Source: Candidatus Saccharimonadota bacterium (GTDB lineage Bacteria > Pseudomonadota > Gammaproteobacteria > Enterobacterales > Enterobacteriaceae). From it: 32,000 bases of DNA. Below, piece after piece: positions 1,780-31,718 of the stretch. Location: NCBI RefSeq assembly GCF_964059045.1, contig NZ_OZ060402.1, forward strand, positions 574,949-606,948, written 5' to 3'. A model generated the notes under the pieces. It was not told the DNA's origin, made no database searches, and worked only from the letters and a program-made list of their open reading frames with translations. Positions within the stretch are counted from its first letter, which is position 1; every line of letters begins with the position of its first letter. A program made the position numbers and the translations under genes.

Positions 1780-1780
1780 T

Positions 1781-1984
1781 TTAAATCATATGAAAACGTT
1801 TATTAAATTTTTCAATTCTTCCACCAGAATCAACTGATCTTTGTTGTCCTGTATAGAATGGATGACAATGAGAACATACATCTAAATTAATATTTTTAGA
1901 AATAGTTGAAAATATTTTTTTAATATGTCCACAAGAACAAGTTGCTGTGATTTCAAAATACTCTGGATGAATGTTTTTTTTCAT
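1781..1984 (-). CDS. rpmE: 50S ribosomal protein L31
   Basis: MKKNIHPEY...CSC....CS.CHPFYTG matches L31. I place the start at the ATG at 1984, which has an aaagga SD 6-8 nt upstream. The track ORF start at 2032 is a TTG inside the upstream palindrome and is rejected. Confidence 0.92.
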
Positions 1985-1992
1985 AATAATCC

Positions 1993-2083
1993 TTTTTAAT
2001 ATAATACAAACATAATTATAATTTACTTTCAAATGATTTGCATTTGAAAGTAAATTATAATTATGTTTGTATTATATTAAAAA
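1993..2083. repeat. perfect inverted repeat, 43-bp arms with 5-nt spacer, abutting the rpmE SD
   Basis: Segment 1993-2035 (tttttaatataatacaaacataattataatttactttcaaatg) is the exact reverse complement of 2041-2083. I verified this base by base. The spacer is atttg. Confidence 0.97.
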
Positions 2084-7386: not shown

Positions 7387-7429
7387 TATTATTACAGTCT
7401 GAAATTTTTATTTTCAGACTGTAATAATA
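7387..7429. terminator. perfect 18-bp stem / 7-nt loop hairpin between convergent coaD and the orphan ORF
   Basis: tattattacagtctgaaa (7387-7404) is the exact reverse complement of tttcagactgtaataata (7412-7429). It contains the only G/C-bearing core (cagtctg) in an otherwise AT-only spacer. Confidence 0.55.
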
Positions 7430-7477: not shown

Positions 7478-8557
7478 TTATTTAAAATAATATGAATATT
7501 TTATGTTTGGATTTCTATTAGTTGTTAATAAAATAGATGCTCTTAAACCAAAAGAAATAAATTTCTTTTCATTATTTTTGTTAACAAATTTTAATTTTGC
7601 TGTATGTGTCACACTTAATTTTAATAAACCAGTTTTGGTAGGTTTTAATTCATAAAGAACATTAGTATTTTTTGGTTCATAATGAAAAAATTCAGGCGTT
7701 GATGTTAACATTTTCATGTATGCCGGAGCTAGTAATTCTTGATTAGCGTATGTAGAAATAAGTTGTCTAGTTTCTAATTTAGGAAATGCTAATTTAAATT
7801 GAGTTAACATATCTCTTTTTGTAGGAGCATCAACAACATAACCTTTAATTTTAACAATAGAATCTGGGTAGTCTAATAAAAATTTCTTATCTAATTCAGA
7901 GGTTTCTTTTAAACTTTGAAACTGATTGTATAATTTATGAGAAAATCTCCAGGTATCAGGTGCAGTATTTAACTTAACCATTTTTTTCCAAGTTACATTG
8001 TCTAATTCTGGATTTGAAAAAATAGCATCTGATAAATTTTTTTGATGTGTATTTGTACTTGAATTTAAAAAAAATTTTTTAATATTTATTAAATCTTGTT
8101 CAGCTTGTTTGTTCTTTAAAGTTTGTTCCGGAGAAATGGAAAGACTATGTTGAATTAAAGTATGATTAGAATCATATTTATTTAAATCACCATTTACATC
8201 ATGTTGTGTAATATTTTTTAAAAGAGAACTTAATAATTGTATTCTTTCTTCTAAATTAACTGGTTTATTATTTAAAGAGATATGATGTAATTGATGTGAA
8301 TTAATTTTTTTTGAATGCGGTCCCATAGAATAAGTAATTTGTTCGTTATTTTTAGAATTACGAATTTTAATTACACTATATCTAGAAGAATTTATTTGAT
8401 CATTATTATTATGTTTGATTCTTTGAGATCTATCAGATTTTATATGAATACTCTTATTATTTACCCTTTTGTTGTTCTTTTGTAAACGATCATTAGATCT
8501 ATCACTTTCATTAATACTTATTAATCGGGTGTTGTTATCAAGTAAAATTGATGACAT
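7478..8557 (-). CDS. hypothetical protein, lineage-specific orphan (low-complexity N/S/K/H-rich N-terminal half, globular-looking C-terminal half)
   Basis: This is an uninterrupted 359-codon ORF with an ATG start and an agga SD about 9 nt upstream. It is the only long ORF in the 1.7-kb coaD-rsmJ gap. Every spurious ORF in this AT-rich window is 130 aa or shorter and shadows a real gene. I recognise no family. Confidence 0.7.
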   Translation of the reverse strand: MSSILLDNNTRLISINESDRSNDRLQKNNKRVNNKSIHIKSDRSQRIKHNNNDQINSSRYSVIKIRNSKNNEQITYSMGPHSKKINSHQLHHISLNNKPVNLEERIQLLSSLLKNITQHDVNGDLNKYDSNHTLIQHSLSISPEQTLKNKQAEQDLINIKKFFLNSSTNTHQKNLSDAIFSNPELDNVTWKKMVKLNTAPDTWRFSHKLYNQFQSLKETSELDKKFLLDYPDSIVKIKGYVVDAPTKRDMLTQFKLAFPKLETRQLISTYANQELLAPAYMKMLTSTPEFFHYEPKNTNVLYELKPTKTGLLKLSVTHTAKLKFVNKNNEKKFISFGLRASILLTTNRNPNIKYSYYFK

Positions 8558-20991: not shown

Positions 20992-21027
20992 AACAGAAAA
21001 AATAAATAGAGTTTTATTTTTTCTGTT
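20992..21027 (-). terminator. intrinsic terminator downstream of ilvC
   Basis: There is a perfect 15-bp stem (20992-21006 with 21013-21027) and a 6-nt loop. On the minus strand, tttttataattttt follows it. The hairpin starts 31 nt after the ilvC stop. Confidence 0.55.
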
Positions 21028-21058: not shown

Positions 21059-22531
21059 TTATTTTACAAAAATAGTTTTCATATTTTTCATTTTTTTTCT
21101 TAATTTTTTTCCAATAATTTCAATAGGATGATTTTCAATTTCTTGATTGATCTTATATAAATCAATATTATTAATATCATGAGAAATGATTTTATGACCC
21201 ATGTCACCATACTGTAAATTTTTTAAAAAATTTTTTAATATAGGAATTGCTGAATTAGAAAACAAATAACTACCATATTCTGCAGTATCAGAAATGATTA
21301 AATTCATTTCATATAACCTTTTTCTTGAAATTGTATTAGCAATTAAAGGAAGCTCATGCAATGATTCATAATAAGCAGATTCTTCAATTATACCTGCATT
21401 AATCATAGTTTCAAATGATAATTCCACACCTGCTTTAATAATTGCAATCATAAAGTTAGAAAAATCAAAATATTCTTGTTCTAAAATAGTACCATTATAA
21501 GAAGGAGCGTTCTCAAAAGATGTTTTTTTTGTATCTAATCTCCATTTTAGTAAGTCAATATCATTATTGTTCCAATCATCCATCATTTTAGAAGAAAAAG
21601 ATCCAGATAGAATATTATCCATATGTTGTTGAAATAATGGTGTTAAAATAATTTTTAATTGATTAGATAAATAACATACCCTTATTTTTGCATTATTAGA
21701 TATTCTATCTAACATTAAAGTAATACCTCCATGTTTTAAAGATTCTGTTAAAACTTCCCATCCATTTTGTATTAGTTTACAAGCAAATGCTATATTATGT
21801 CCTTGTTCAACAAGATATTCATAACAAATCAAACTACCTGCTTGTAACATACCACATAAAATAGTTTGTTCTCCCATTAAATCTGATTTTACTTCTGCAA
21901 TAAAAGAAGATTCTAAAATACCTGCATGATGACTACCTATAGCAACTGCCCATGCTTTAGCAATTTCTAATCCAATTTTTTGGGGGTTATTTTTATTATG
22001 GACTGCTATTAATGTTGGAACTCCAAAATTCCTTTTATATTCTTCGCGCACTTCAGAACCTGGGCATTTAGGAGCAACCATAATAACTGTGATATCTTTT
22101 CTAATTTTTTCTCCCATTTCTACAATGTTAAATCCATGAGAATATCCTAAACATGAGCCATTTTTCATTAATGGTTGTATTTTTTGTATGACTGAATGGT
22201 GTTGTTTATCTGGAGTTAAATTAATTACTAAATCAGCAGTAGGAATAAGATTTTCATAAATATCTACAACAAAATTATTTTTAAATGCATTTTTCCAAGA
22301 CATGGTTTTTGCTTGAATTGATTCTTTTCTTAAAGCAAAAGAAATATCTAATCCAGAATCTCTCATATTTAAACCTTGATTTAAACCTTGAGAACCACAA
22401 CCAATAATTACTATTTTTTTTTCTTTTAAAAAAGAACAATAATTTAAGAATTCTTTTTTTTTCATTAAACGACATTTTTTTAATTCAATTAATTTTTCTC
22501 TAAAATTTAAACTATTAAAATAATTTTTCAT
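21059..22531 (-). CDS. ilvC: ketol-acid reductoisomerase (NADP+)
   Basis: [74 protein letters not shown] and SDTAEYG match E. coli IlvC. The ATG at 22531 aligns with E. coli M-ANYFN. The track start at 22543 is a TTG 4 codons upstream. Confidence 0.95.
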
Positions 22532-22628
22532 TTTTTTTTCCAAAATATACTAATATATTATTAATAATAATATCAAAAAACAATTGATGTATATGAATAA
22601 AAAATTATAAAAATTTAAATAATTTCTA

Positions 22629-24485
22629 TTAAAAATTTAATTTATTTACATCACGAACAGCACCTTGATCAGCACTAGTAGCTAAACATGAATATGCTTT
22701 TAAAGCATTTGAAATAATTCTCTTCCTTTGAACATAAGGTGTATATGCTTGATTGTTTCTTGATTCTTCTATATCTTTACGTGTTAATAATTCTTGATTT
22801 GTTACTTGTAATTCAATAGTTCTATTTGGAATATTAATCATGATTACATCATTATTTTGAACTAGTGCAATTATTCCTTTATTTGCAGCTTCAGGCGAAA
22901 CATGTCCTATAGATAAACCTGATGTACCTCCTGAAAATCTACCATCGGTAATTAAAGCACAAGATTTATCTAATCCCATAGATTTTAAATATGTTGTAGG
23001 ATATAACATCTCCTGCATACCAGGTCCACCTTTAGGACCTTCATATCTAATTAAAATAATATCACCTGATTGAATATAATTATTTAAAATTGCATATACA
23101 GCATCTTCTTGACTTTCATATACTTTTACTGGTCCTTGAAAAACATAATTTTTTTTATCTACGCCAGAAGTTTTAACAATACATCCATTTTTAGCAATAT
23201 TACCATATAACACTGCTAAACCACCTTGTTGACTATAAGCATAATCAATAGATCTTATACATCCAAAACGACGATTGGTATCAAGTTCATCCCATCTAAA
23301 TGATTGAGAAAAAGGAATTACTGTTTTAATTCCCATCGGGCCAGCACGATACATCTTAATAATATCAAGATCTTTATTATTTATTATATTATATTTTTTT
23401 ATTGTTTCTTCCAATGTTATTTGTAAAATATTTTTAACTGTAGTATCTAATAAAAAAAAATTATTTAATTCACCTAAGATTCCCATAACACCTCCAGCTC
23501 GATGCATGTCTTCCATATGGTAAATTGATGAACTCGGTGCTATTTTACAGATATTAGGTATTTTTTTAGATAAATCATTAATATCTGACATATTAAAATC
23601 AATATCACCTTCTTTTGCTGCTGCTAGTAAATGCAATACAGTATTGGTTGATCCACCCATTGCTATATCTAATTTCATTGCATTATGAAAAGAATTTTTA
23701 CAAGCTATATTACGTGGTAAAACATTATAATTATCATTATGATAATAAGCTTTTGTAATATCTACAATTGTTTTACCTGATTGTACAAATAGTTTTCTCC
23801 GATCAACATGAGTGGCAAGTAATGTACCATTACCTGGCAATGCTAATCCTAGTGCTTCCATTAAACAATTCATTGAATTAGCAGTAAACATTCCGGAACA
23901 TGAACCACATGTTGGACAAGCAGAGTCTTCTATTTTTTTTGACTCTACATCAGATACATTAGGATTGGAACCTTGAACAATGGCATCAATTAAATCTATT
24001 TTTACAATTTCATTTTTTTGATTTAATATTCTTCCTGCTTCCATTGGTCCACCAGAAACAAAAACAGATGGAATATTTAGACGTAAAGCTGCCATTAACA
24101 TTCCAGGAGTAATTTTATCACAATTTGAAATACACACCATAGCATCAACACAATGTGCATTAATCATATATTCAATAGAATCTGCAATAATTTCTCGGGA
24201 TGGTAAAGAATACAACATCCCAGAATGTCCCATAGCAATACCATCATCTATAGCAATTGTATTAAATTCTTTAGATACACCACCAGAAGATTGAATGGAT
24301 TTTGCTACAATATTACCTAATTCTCTTAAATGAATATGACCTGGGACAAATTCTGTGAAAGAATTAACGATAGCAATAATTGGTTTTTGAAAATCTAAAT
24401 CTGTCATTCCAGTAGCTTTCCATAAAGCTCGAGCCCCTGACATATTTTTACCATGAATTGTTGTAGCGGATCGATATTGAGGCAT
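22629..24485 (-). CDS. ilvD: dihydroxy-acid dehydratase
   Basis: This is a 618-aa [69 protein letters not shown] and [21 protein letters not shown] match E. coli IlvD. The ATG at 24485 has an aggag SD. Confidence 0.97.
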
Positions 24486-24496
24486 ATTAAACTCCT

Positions 24497-24626
24497 TTTT
24501 AGATCATTACAGTGTTAATTAAAAACAAGGTTGAATCTAGTTAAAACAATATATTATTAGGCCTAATAATATATTGTTTTAACTAGATTCAACCTTGTTT
24601 TTAATTAACACTGTAATGATCTAAAA
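24497..24626. repeat. 130-bp perfect spacerless palindrome (65-bp arms, centre AGGCCT) between tRNA-Trp and the ilvD SD
   Basis: Segment 24497-24561 is the exact reverse complement of 24562-24626. I verified this base by base. The first mismatch occurs at the 24496/24627 pair. Confidence 0.97.
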
Positions 24627-24645
24627 TTTATTTTAAATTTTTTAA

Positions 24646-24719
24646 CAAAGGTGGAGGGAATTGAACCCACAACCCTCGGTTTTGGAGACCGATGCTCTAC
24701 CTAATTGAGCTACACCTTT
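24646..24719 (-). tRNA. trpT: tRNA-Trp (anticodon CCA)
   Basis: The minus strand reads aaaggtgtagctcaattaggtagagcatcggtctccaaaaccgagggttgtgggttcaattccctccacctttg. The anticodon loop is ctCCAaa and the discriminator is G, as in E. coli trpT. There is one U-U mismatch in the T-stem. No 3' CCA is encoded. Confidence 0.9.
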
Positions 24720-24907
24720 AAAATATTTATATATATTATTTTAAATAATTAAAAATAAAACAATAATATTAATTATACTATAATTAACAAAATAATTACA
24801 GTATATAAAAATATATTTTGAATAATACATCATAACTATATCAAAAGTTATTTAATTAAATTGTATTATTTGTAATGATTTTAAAATAAAAATTAATCCA
24901 ATAATTC

Positions 24908-24937
24908 TTGTTCAAAAAATATATTTAGTAGTATAAT
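24908..24937 (+). promoter_or_regulatory. candidate sigma70 promoter for the isc operon (TTGTTC-18 nt-TATAAT)
   Basis: ttgttc (24908-24913) and a consensus tataat (24932-24937) lie about 115 nt upstream of iscS. The call rests on the motif only, in about 90% AT DNA. Confidence 0.25.
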
Positions 24938-25052
24938 GAATAATATACTAAATTAATAACAATATTATATTTTATAATTATTTAATTATTTAATCAAATT
25001 AAAAAATCAGTTAAATGTTTAAAATACTAAATTAAAAATTGTTGAGGTTCAA

Positions 25053-26267
25053 TTGTTAAAATTTCCAATTTATTTAGATTATGCTTCTACTACTCCCATG
25101 GAACCAAAAATAGTAGAAAAAATGATAAAATATTTAACATTATCAGGTACATTTGGTAATTCTGCTTCACGTTCTCATTTATTTGGTTGGGAAGCTGAAG
25201 AAGCGGTAGATATTGCTCGTAATCAAATTTCTGATTTAATTAATGCTGATCCTCGTGAAATTATATTTACTTCAGGTGCTACAGAATCAAATAATTTAGC
25301 TATTAAAGGTGTGATAGATTTTTATCAATCAAAAGGTAATCATATTATTACTAGTACGACAGAACATAAATCAGTTTTAGATACATGTCGATATCTTGAA
25401 AGTAAAAATATTAATGTCACTTATCTTAATCCTAATCATGATGGTATTATCGATATTAATAAATTAAAATCTTTTATTTCAAAAAAAACAATATTAATTT
25501 CTATTATGCATGTCAATAATGAAACTGGAGTTATACAACCAATTGAACAAATTGCAGAAATATGCAATCAATATAAAATTATTTTTCATGTAGATATGAC
25601 ACAAAGTATAGGGAAAATTCCTATCGATTTAGAAAAAATAAATATTAGTTTAATTTCATTTAGCGCTCATAAAATTTATGGACCTAAAGGTATTGGAGTA
25701 TTATATGTTAGAAGAAAACCAAGAATTAGATTAGTTAGTCAAATACATGGTGGAGGTCATGAAAGAGGTTTAAGATCCGGAACATTACCAGTACATCAAA
25801 TTATAGGTATGGGAGAAGCATGTCAATTAGCTAAAAAAAATATTACTATAGAACCACAAAGATTAAATACATTAAAAAACAGATTATGGAATGGTATTAA
25901 AGATATTGAAGAAGTTTATTTAAATAGTAACTTAAATAAAGGTGCTCCACATATTTTGAATGTGAGTTTTAATTATGTGGAAGGAGAATCATTAATCATG
26001 GGATTAAAAAATTTAGCAATTTCTTCTGGATCTGCATGCACATCTACTAGTTTAGAACCATCTTATGTATTACGCGCTTTAGGTTTAAAAGATGAATTAG
26101 CACATAGTTCTATTAGATTTTCTATTGGTTTATTCACTACTAAACAAGAAATTGATTATACTATTGAATCTATTCATGAATCTATAATAAAATTAAGAAA
26201 TTTATCTCCTTTATGGGAAATGTATAAATCAGGCATTAATATAGAATCAATTGATTGGAAAGCATAA
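25053..26267 (+). CDS. iscS: cysteine desulfurase IscS
   Basis: This is a 404-aa ORF, the same length as E. coli Isc[46 protein letters not shown] (PLP Lys), [20 protein letters not shown] (catalytic Cys) and LSPLWEMYK are present. The start is a TTG at 25053 with a gagg SD 5 nt upstream. No nearby in-frame ATG exists. Confidence 0.96.
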
Positions 26268-31031: not shown

Positions 31032-31643
31032 TTAATGACTATTGATATAATTTAATTTCATTCTAATAATATTTTTTGTTCGTTTATCCAATTGATATAA
31101 TAAACTTTTTTTCCATAAATATAAAGTTAAACTCTTATTTTTCTCTAATAAAAATAAATCTCCTTTAATATCTTCTATTATTTTTTTCCAATTATTATTC
31201 TTAATTGTATTTAAAACTTTTTTAGCAATTATGATATTTTGTTGTTCAATTTGCATTCTGGCTATTCTTAATTGAATAATAATTTTTAAATTTTCATCTG
31301 AAATATATGGTAAACAAAAATTTAATATCTGAATAGAAAAAGGAATATAATTCATTTGAACAAAAATTTTAGATAATTTTAAACTAATTAAAATACCATA
31401 AATATTTTTATTTTTAATAATAAATTTAAATACTCTTTTATTATATAAAATATTTTTTTTATTTAATTGATGCATTAATTGAGAATATTTTTGTAATCTA
31501 ATATTTTTTTCATAATATTCATTTTTTTTATAGAAATAACAACCCACCAAAAACATAAAAATAAAAATAAAAAAAATACTAAAAAAATATTTATTTTTCA
31601 TAAATTTATTTAAAAAAATAAATATTTTAAATAAAATAAACAT
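31032..31643 (-). CDS. yfgM: YfgM-family membrane-anchored TPR-like ancillary SecYEG/chaperone protein
   Basis: This is a 203-aa ORF with an N-terminal hydrophobic anchor. SDENLKIIIQLRIARMQIEQ matches E. coli YfgM TSDENLKAVINLRLARVQVQ. It lies upstream of der, as in E. coli. The ATG at 31643 has an aagga SD. Confidence 0.8.
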   Translation of the reverse strand: MFILFKIFIFLNKFMKNKYFFSIFFIFIFMFLVGCYFYKKNEYYEKNIRLQKYSQLMHQLNKKNILYNKRVFKFIIKNKNIYGILISLKLSKIFVQMNYIPFSIQILNFCLPYISDENLKIIIQLRIARMQIEQQNIIIAKKVLNTIKNNNWKKIIEDIKGDLFLLEKNKSLTLYLWKKSLLYQLDKRTKNIIRMKLNYINSH

Positions 31644-31652
31644 ATATATTTC

Positions 31653-31718
31653 CTTTTGTATAAAATATGTCTAAATGCATCTATTAATAGATGCATTTAG
31701 ACATATTTTATACAAAAG
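31653..31718. repeat. 66-bp perfect spacerless palindrome (33-bp arms) abutting the yfgM SD
   Basis: cttttgtataaaatatgtctaaatgcatctatt (31653-31685) is the exact reverse complement of 31686-31718. The outer 10 nt of the distal arm (tatacaaaag) are also the junction sequence of the adjacent tandem array. Confidence 0.97.

Follow-up and report, generated by a model that had tools for sequence, protein, structure and literature searches.

How does a long, flawless DNA palindrome persist between two genes of a symbiont genome, and does it serve the genes on either side? This question is raised by a 130-bp inverted repeat in the spacer between the genes for tRNA-Trp (trpT) and dihydroxy-acid dehydratase (ilvD) in Buchnera aphidicola of the aphid Eriosoma grossulariae. 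The element was analysed within a stretch of 32,000 nucleotides from contig NZ_OZ060402.1 (hereafter called the window; 21.9% G+C), and all coordinates given without a locus prefix refer to this stretch. The ilvD protein encoded in the window is 100% identical to that of the E. grossulariae symbiont.

A perfect palindrome between trpT and ilvD

The junction contains the following features, given in minus-strand order.

24645-24720, minus strand: tRNA-Trp gene with a CCA anticodon (ARAGORN; Rfam RF00005, 68.7 bits)
24627-24644, minus strand: A/U-rich 18-nt linker from the tRNA-Trp 3' end to the palindrome, read from the sequence
24562-24626, minus strand: tRNA-proximal arm, 65 nt, the 5' arm on the sense strand
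24591-24596, minus strand: mirror core AAGGTT (sense strand) in the tRNA-proximal arm, with an A-run before it
24559-24564, no strand: palindrome centre AGGCCT, of which GGCC would be a 4-nt loop if a hairpin forms
24497-24561, minus strand: Shine-Dalgarno (SD)-proximal arm, 65 nt, the 3' arm on the ilvD/trpT sense strand and the exact reverse complement of 24562-24626
24527-24532, minus strand: conserved core AACCTT (sense strand) in the SD-proximal arm, then GTTTTTAATT; resembles a terminator stem base and U-tract
24492-24496, minus strand: ilvD SD sequence AGGAG, which begins at the first base beyond the palindrome and lies outside the long stem
22629-24485, minus strand: ilvD, dihydroxy-acid dehydratase (NCBIfam NF009103, 1083 bits)
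21059-22543, minus strand: ilvC, which follows ilvD; rep, trxA and rho come next on the same strand

The palindrome fills almost the whole trpT-ilvD spacer, such that the tRNA-Trp gene is followed by the 18-nt linker, the palindrome, AGGAGTTTAAT and the ilvD ATG at 24485-24483. A base-by-base check of 24497-24561 against 24562-24626 established exact reverse complementarity at 65 of 65 positions with a spacer of 0. Outward from the centre at 24561/24562, the first non-complementary arm positions are 66, 67, 68 and 70, and a repeat search extends the palindrome to 75-nt arms (95%, no spacer). Each arm carries 14 G/C positions. At the base composition of the window, the chance of pairing is ~1/3 per position, and a run of 65 pairs has a probability of ~1e-31 per site. 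Compared with a definition of inverted repeats that requires at least 30 bp, a gap of at most 20 nt and at most three mismatches, the element spans 130 bp with a gap of 0 and 0 mismatches. We regard the trpT-ilvD palindrome as almost certainly real.

The RNA of the trpT-ilvD spacer is predicted to form a single uninterrupted stem (-88.2 kcal/mol; z = -24.8 versus shuffled sequences), and the predicted fold of the longer stretch from the tRNA to ilvD has z = -14.7. In this model the 5' and 3' arms pair over their full length and leave the SD outside the stem, and a small local hairpin is predicted between the ilvD SD and codons 2-3. Because the SD is outside the stem, the modelled fold does not indicate a direct translational gate. 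On each single strand of the DNA, a hairpin of -63 kcal/mol is predicted. The tRNA-Trp gene lacks an encoded 3' CCA (TTA follows the discriminator G), and therefore precise trimming and CCA addition would be needed just 18 nt upstream of the 65-bp stem.

Many of these properties had been described in a previous sequence-only reading of this DNA. Its report of a spacerless, perfect 130-bp palindrome centred on AGGCCT, with many G/C positions in the arm and with pairing beyond chance, is borne out by the values given above, as is its expectation of an RNA stem ending directly at the SD. The minus-strand order that it gave for the tRNA, linker, palindrome and ilvD is also correct, but the linker length of 19 nt is not, since the linker is 18 nt long.

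Orthologous palindromes in sister Buchnera

Two Eriosoma relatives carry palindromes that also lie between tRNA-Trp and the ilvD SD. The three elements are as follows.

E. grossulariae, window:24497-24626: perfect arms of 65 nt, spacer 0, tRNA-Trp linker 18 nt, 11 nt to the ilvD ATG
E. lanigerum, L081:7508-7607: perfect arms of 49 nt, spacer 2, tRNA-Trp linker 10 nt, 10 nt to the ilvD ATG
E. harunire, L002:2892-2990 (= L087:9892-9990): perfect arms of 49 nt, spacer 1, tRNA-Trp linker 23 nt, 10 nt to the ilvD ATG

The ilvD proteins of E. lanigerum and E. harunire are 81% and 71-72% identical, respectively, to that of the window. The sequence-only reading had named a very recent origin as one explanation for the flawless arms, and had suggested that sister genomes be compared because an ordinary, unstructured spacer there would count against the element. 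The comparison revealed a perfect palindrome in both relatives instead, and a very recent origin is contradicted by the occurrence of homologous palindromes in species with ilvD identities of no more than 71-81%. Additional support comes from a Logan assembly (k = 31) of E. harunire reads, in which a 35-kb contig starts at position 9961 of L087, or 30 nt (k-1) inside the SD-proximal arm. A break at this depth is expected because a de Bruijn graph must branch at a true inverted repeat in the reads.

Over the ~40 kb of orthologous sequence from E. lanigerum (L081 and L089) and from E. harunire (L087 and L090), the trpT-ilvD element is the sole perfect inverted repeat with arms longer than 18 nt. 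Nine other Buchnera lineages with tRNA-Trp beside ilvD (Pemphigus, Tetraneura, Mollitrichosiphum, Chaitophorus, Periphyllus and four more) have spacers of 84-241 nt at this junction, with no inverted repeat longer than 15 nt there. The z values of the spacer folds range from -3.6 to +1.5 in these nine, versus -13.9, -16.8 and -24.8 in the three Eriosoma symbionts. Among further ilvD proteins retrieved from Logan, JGI and ENA, none clusters with Eriosoma in an ilvD tree.

In Pemphigus-type Buchnera, the ilvD leader (L082:5100-5150 and L003:2905-2950) has an imperfect hairpin of ~23 bp located ~45 nt upstream of the SD, exemplified by AATAATATTTAATAGTTTTAA / TTAAAAATATTAAATATTATT with one mismatch. 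This hairpin may be a quasipalindromic relative, or a precursor state, of the Eriosoma element.

Divergence of the arms and signs of concerted evolution

The arms of different species are 61-68% identical to each other, with 15-19 substitutions plus indels per species pair. For E. grossulariae and E. lanigerum, the alignment score of the arms was exceeded in 0 of 2000 shuffles. Each species pair has a segment of 17-22 nt with 13-18 identities at p = 0.002-0.026, with the exception of the 17-nt segment shared by E. grossulariae and E. lanigerum (p = 0.14). The block AATTA.AA..AAGGTT is found in the same register in all three Eriosoma symbionts, 28-32 nt in from the outer arm end, and the region of its AAGGTT/AACCTT core is the only block common to all three palindromes. 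From this core to the centre, the length varies among the three species (11, 15 and 29 nt).

The 163 base-pairs present in the three palindromes include 0 mismatches and 0 G.U pairs. Since the palindrome of each species is perfect, every interspecific difference must be present in both arms. If the arms drifted independently at ~0.16 per site per lineage, a value estimated from the observed divergence, the chance of retaining 65 intact pairs would be ~1e-10. These comparisons indicate that the palindrome is older than the split of the three Eriosoma lineages, and that its arms evolve in concert.

Selection on an RNA tolerates G.U pairs and C-to-T pressure is strong, and thus the lack of any mismatch or G.U pair points to a process that acts on DNA. 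Symmetry is probably kept by an intrastrand copying process at the DNA level. The pattern expected of template switching, in which differences are mirrored in both arms and one-sided or G.U intermediates are lacking, is the pattern observed. The 15-19 mirrored differences per species pair, with 0 G.U pairs, thereby favour the continual intrastrand homogenisation that the sequence-only reading had listed among its options. Selection on the structure may act in addition to homogenisation.

Two additional palindromes in the window abut SD sequences

Other perfect inverted repeats in the window have arms of 43, 33, 25, 18 and 15 nt.

1993-2083, minus strand: palindrome 2, 43-nt perfect arms with a 5-nt loop; ends 8 nt upstream of the rpmE ATG (rpmE 1780-1984, minus strand)
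31653-31718, minus strand: palindrome 3, 33-nt perfect arms with a loop of 0; ends 9 nt upstream of the ATG of a yfgM-like open reading frame (ORF) at 31032-31643
1721-1779: 25-nt arms with a 9-nt loop, between the convergent tRNA-Gly and rpmE genes
7387-7429: 18-nt arms with a 7-nt loop, between convergent genes
20992-21027: 15-nt arms with a 6-nt loop, between ilvC and rep

The trpT-ilvD palindrome and palindromes 2 and 3, which are the three longest, end 11, 8 and 9 nt before a start codon, respectively. At each of these junctions an A-run leads into the SD (AAAA/AGGAG, AAAAA/GGAT and CAAAAG/GAAA, with the slash marking the palindrome boundary). Under random placement in the 6.1 kb of spacers in the window, each palindrome would end no more than 11 nt from a start codon in 5-6% of cases, giving a joint probability of 1.6e-4. 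Such a shared boundary at the SD is consistent with palindromes that grow until selection on the ribosome-binding site stops them.

The three longest palindromes have arms of mutually unrelated sequence, and a search of the window and of 806 kb retrieved from Buchnera and other sources revealed no second copy of any arm. These two observations argue that the palindromes were generated locally and do not constitute a mobile family. The hairpins beside rpmE (1993-2083 and 1721-1779) have no counterpart in E. lanigerum or E. harunire, and the palindrome beside the yfgM-like gene (31653-31718) has none in L081, L085 or L087. From these sequences, such palindromes appear to arise readily in the E. 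grossulariae lineage. The trpT-ilvD palindrome alone is retained across Eriosoma, which argues for selective value or at least for an unusually persistent seed.

The palindromes at 1721-1779, 7387-7429 and 20992-21027 look like ordinary terminators. The rpmE gene (ribosomal protein L31) is flanked by two perfect hairpins, one whose 43-bp stem stops at the SD and one whose 25-bp stem directly follows the stop codon and faces tRNA-Gly. In the spacer upstream of the yfgM-like gene, a 55-bp tandem repeat (window:31709-31979; 4.9 copies, 98% identity) overlaps the palindrome with 33-nt arms, beginning within the outer 10 nt of that palindrome. The equivalent spacer in other Buchnera records borders mnmG/gidA (L085) or ends the record, and is therefore the conventional origin region.

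A terminator-like core and a proposed origin

The sequence around the conserved core suggests how the element might have begun. On the sense strand of E. grossulariae, the upstream arm contains AAAAACAAGGTT and the downstream arm contains AACCTTGTTTTTAATT (AACCTTGTTTTT); at the core, the corresponding downstream-arm sequences are AACCTTATTTTTAATT (E. harunire) and AACCTTAATTGTAATT (E. lanigerum). The conserved inner stem is followed by GUUUUUAAUU in E. grossulariae, AUUUUUAAUU in E. harunire and AAUUGUAAUU in E. lanigerum. A core that contains G/C, with an A-run upstream and a T-rich run downstream, is arranged like a bidirectional intrinsic terminator. Immediately after RNA polymerase passes the core, the nascent stem would be ~19-35 bp long, with the only conserved G-C pairs at its base and a U-rich run immediately after it, and the 3' end of a terminated transcript would be placed after AACCUUGUUUUU. 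Moreover, the element provides a G/C-containing stem with a short loop just past a gene, as a terminator would (18 nt after tRNA-Trp, a 4-nt loop and 14 G-C pairs). Neither this likeness of the core to the base and U-tract of an intrinsic terminator nor the other SD-abutting perfect palindromes of the genome had been recognized in the sequence-only reading.

Our favoured interpretation, to which we give about an even chance of being correct, is that a hairpin of the trpT terminator or the ilvD leader was enlarged and kept perfect by template switching, with its growth halted at the SD. The element would descend from a hairpin that terminated or insulated the highly transcribed tRNA-Trp gene just upstream of ilvDC. 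In E. coli, the tRNA-Trp gene is the last of rrnC and is followed by the operon terminator. Small AT-rich hairpins follow trpT in other Buchnera. In most Buchnera examined, no tRNA is expressed more highly than tRNA-Trp (PMC3439896), and conserved terminators are known to be part of the content of Buchnera spacers (PMC3164680).

Enlargement and correction could both proceed during replication. A nascent strand that switches template to the opposite arm (quasipalindrome correction) would copy or erase new mutations, and the same switching could lengthen the arms, outward to the SD and, in E. grossulariae, inward to a spacerless centre. Template switching is documented to create and maintain perfect hairpins (PMC8794818; PMC7202029 and related papers). 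It needs no RecA, and would be expected to go unchecked in a genome without SbcCD and most recombination functions. Buchnera in general lack RecA and nearly all recombination proteins (PMC1193525), and symbionts commonly lose SbcCD and RecFOR (PMC4948707). Outward growth would stop at the ilvD SD, because overwriting the SD or drawing it into the stem would be selected against.

The least certain step of this proposal is function. A hairpin of about -88 kcal/mol between tRNA-Trp and a free SD would most likely serve as a transcriptional barrier or attenuator. The spacer is otherwise nearly empty, and therefore read-through from the trpT promoter is the probable source of ilvDC expression. In read-through transcripts, the full hairpin would part the tRNA from the mRNA, and cleavage in the A/U-rich linker would leave a protective hairpin at the 5' end of the ilvDC mRNA. 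A 5'-terminal stem protects mRNA against RNase E, and perfect double-stranded RNA (dsRNA) of 49-65 bp is a good substrate for RNase III. If the spacer is transcribed, as is assumed here, the sense RNA would contain a predicted perfect stem of 65 bp, which exceeds the dsRNA length of at least ~20 bp taken to define an RNase III-type site. That the element derives from, and still acts as, a trpT terminator, an insulator or an ilvDC leader, and is not a tolerated by-product, is a possibility that we rate slightly below even.

Several observations weigh against this interpretation. The sequence immediately 3' of the full 65-bp stem on the sense strand, AGGAGUUUAAU, does not form a U-tract, and a scan with a terminator consensus returned 0 hits. 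A terminator would therefore have to rely on the internal stem, whose T-run is weak in E. lanigerum (AATTGTAATT). Efficient termination would also require that ilvD have a promoter of its own, and no promoter-like site was found above chance. Upstream of the rpmE and yfgM palindromes there is no co-oriented gene that they could terminate, and neither palindrome is conserved, which shows that such palindromes can arise in this genome without a terminator role. In a neighbour-joining tree, Tetraneura is placed beside or inside the Eriosoma group, and this placement calls for a loss there or for a less simple history. Finally, all functional steps proposed for the palindrome are inferred.

Alternative explanations

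An interpretation that we consider rather unlikely, though a serious one, is that the element is a functionless by-product: template switching in a repair-poor, AT-rich genome would spontaneously build and enlarge palindromes in any spacer, these would persist only for want of anything that removes them, and selection would merely stop them at the SD. The additional perfect palindromes with arms of 43, 33 and 25 nt, absent from the orthologous ~40 kb of both sisters, do suggest that new ones arise readily, and a structure without function would account for the poorly conserved arms (61-68% identity) and the variable central part (11, 15 or 29 nt from core to centre). However, only this long palindrome has been retained in all three Eriosoma genomes at the same junction. 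Its survival over very deep divergence is not expected in symbiont genomes such as these, which are biased toward deletion, and its G/C-containing core has been held in register despite strong AT pressure. Another alternative is selection on RNA alone, with an RNase III site or a stabilizing stem at the 5' end of ilvD mRNA whose pairing is kept by compensatory substitutions. The sense transcript has an extremely stable predicted hairpin between the tRNA and the SD, its pairing has survived 15-19 double-sided changes per species pair, and 49-65 bp of perfect dsRNA suits RNase III, as is textbook knowledge. Nonetheless, we judge this explanation improbable. Since such selection tolerates G.U pairs and mismatches, C-to-T pressure should have produced some among the 163 pairs, and none is seen. 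Stems of 49-65 bp are far longer than these RNA functions require, comparable perfect palindromes beside rpmE and yfgM are not conserved, and there is no Rfam match.

Strict Watson-Crick symmetry on both strands could also reflect a function of the DNA itself, for example as a cruciform, a symmetric protein-binding site or a replication-pausing site that affects supercoiling, replication or divergent transcription near trpT/iscS. It is textbook knowledge that AT-rich flanks favour cruciform extrusion, a hairpin of -63 kcal/mol is predicted for each DNA strand, and the gene orientation and the sign of the GC skew both change ~400 bp away. Yet the conserved sequence is limited to a 6-nt core, which makes a sequence-specific protein site unlikely, the palindrome differs in length among species, and the skew changes sign where the genes change orientation, which requires no special element. 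A DNA-level function of this kind is highly improbable in our estimation. The sequence-only reading had also raised the concern of an assembly or polishing artefact. In that case, an ordinary or quasi-palindromic spacer would have been made perfect by the assembler or by reads mis-mapped between the arms. The E. grossulariae assembly does contain more long perfect palindromes than those of its sisters, and palindromes are known to cause problems in assembly and Sanger sequencing (PMC3017870). Against this, a perfect palindrome of homologous but different sequence is present at the same junction in three independent assemblies, one for each species, the Logan unitig of E. harunire reads breaks exactly k-1 = 30 nt into an arm, and the element is flanked by unique sequence in the middle of a 607-kb contig. 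An artefact is thus very unlikely.

Comparison with known systems

The element belongs to a known but little-studied class of long endosymbiont palindromes. In the ant endosymbiont Blochmannia, long intergenic palindromes of 62-136 bp number 20, 10 and 6 per genome (PMC3017870; PMC3268670). The authors noted that these palindromes impeded assembly and should decay without selection, and suggested roles in transcription control or mRNA stability (PMC3017870). The Blochmannia palindromes resemble the present one in total length, are near-perfect and almost all intergenic, and are found in a reduced, AT-rich, RecA-less gammaproteobacterial symbiont of insects. The trpT-ilvD element likewise occupies an intergenic spacer of an AT-rich, reduced symbiont genome, for which the absence of RecA is taken from the literature on Buchnera in general. 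The Blochmannia report (Williams & Wernegreen 2010) is a census that allowed up to three mismatches and a 20-nt gap, and does not address orthology, arm evolution or a positional rule; its supplementary files do not list palindrome positions (PMC3017870). In contrast, the Buchnera element is perfect in three species with diverged sequence, occupies the junction of a tRNA and an mRNA, and stops at the SD. In a bacteria-wide census of inverted repeats, the highest density of short ones was noted in Buchnera (PMC10434271), and our literature search found no account of long Buchnera palindromes or of the trpT-ilvD element. What the present analysis adds to the class is orthology across three species, concerted arm evolution without G.U pairs, a terminator-like core and the SD-abutment rule.

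Perfect arms, mirrored multi-base differences, the lack of G.U pairs and independence from RecA are all shared with quasipalindrome correction (the Ripley model; PMC7202029; Monttinen & Loytynoja 2022, PMC8794818). However, the documented cases mostly concern stems of up to ~20 bp or single events, whereas the Eriosoma element has stems of 49-65 bp that were apparently homogenised repeatedly over a long divergence, and its mechanism is deduced from the pattern. Rho-independent (bidirectional) terminators, including those of Buchnera spacers (Degnan et al. 2011, PMC3164680), resemble the element in having a hairpin, here 10-23 nt past trpT, and an A-run and a T-run around a G/C-containing segment. 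The Eriosoma stem differs from them in being 3-5 times longer than any normal terminator, in lacking a U-tract after the complete stem and in escaping the consensus scan.

Another comparison, drawn from general knowledge, can be made with ompA-type 5' stem-loops and with RNase III hairpins such as those of the phage T7 early region and the rRNA spacers. As in these systems, the predicted fold places a strong hairpin directly before the ribosome-binding site without enclosing the SD, and, as with RNase III hairpins between cistrons, the element separates a stable RNA from an mRNA, with probable co-transcription of the two. Those elements differ in being short, imperfect and defined by mapped RNA ends and nuclease dependence.

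Rejected assignments and neighbouring features

Several other assignments were considered and set aside. A scan of the window with Rfam 15 at the gathering threshold returned five tRNAs only, and the palindrome, which matches no family, is accordingly not assigned to a known RNA family. A mobile element or dispersed repeat (REP/BIME-like or MITE) was rejected because the window and the 806 kb of retrieved loci hold no other copy and the remaining palindromes of the window do not share its sequence; moreover, its flanks show no target-site duplication. A canonical terminator call was dropped on the basis of the 0 scan hits, such that only the internal-stem version survives. A promoter within the palindrome, represented by mirrored TTAAAA-18-AATAAT matches that straddle the centre, was dismissed since such matches are no more frequent than in shuffled sequence (9 found, 7.8 expected) and are not conserved in the sisters.

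Beyond tRNA-Trp, the plus strand carries iscS, iscU, hscB, hscA and fdx. The cumulative GC skew has a minimum near 24-25 kb (window 24000-25100), with its sign change ~400 bp from the palindrome. The coincidence of this change with the divergent orientation of trpT and iscS is probably a transcription-strand effect. A replication origin at 24-25 kb was rejected on the grounds that the orientation switch explains the minimum, which is then no evidence for an origin.

Some differences in gene content were encountered in the compared regions. In E. harunire, the 2.2 kb that separate ilvC from trxA (L087:13460-15698; compare window:18882-20897) contain no called gene, and rep is probably a pseudogene there. 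The rep helicase is intact in E. grossulariae (671 amino acids) and E. lanigerum (670 amino acids), and loss of rep is uncorrelated with the presence of the palindrome. In the Buchnera genomes represented by L082 and L083 (598 and 554 kb), no hscA (HSP70-type) is called between fdx and hscB, whereas hscA of the window is intact (618 amino acids); both have a chromosomal leuABCD between rep and trxA. An ORF of 359 amino acids in the window (7478-8557, minus strand) has no NCBIfam match at 1e-10. Its syntenic genes in E. lanigerum (L089:15087-16412, 441 amino acids) and E. harunire (L090:13840-15195, 451 amino acids) have no Pfam hit.

Implications for endosymbiont genomes

To our knowledge, perfect palindromes longer than ~100 bp are not viable in wild-type E. 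coli. A palindrome at the same junction in three lineages, diverged in sequence yet flawless in each, would constitute a natural long-term record of RecA-independent arm homogenisation. The rule that growth stops at the SD can be checked on all complete endosymbiont genomes, and would separate what mutation builds from the limits that selection sets. Because such elements break short-read assemblies, as seen for the E. harunire contig and previously in Blochmannia (PMC3017870), they should be expected at the contig ends of symbiont genomes.

The trpT-ilvD palindrome is also a candidate for post-transcriptional or terminator-level control of ilvDC, an essential-amino-acid pathway, in a Buchnera setting where nearly all regulators have been lost. 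A bolder proposal, which we consider distinctly unlikely, is that template switching is a continuous homogenising drive in endosymbionts that lack RecA and SbcCD, and that the trpT-ilvD palindrome was co-opted to uncouple or meter read-through into ilvDC. If the first part of this proposal is true, very long perfect palindromes would be born, grow to the ribosome-binding site and persist for millions of years. If the second part is true, the palindrome would regulate nutrient provisioning in cis in a genome that has hardly any transcription factors, and the read-through that it meters would come from the most active tRNA promoter of the cell.

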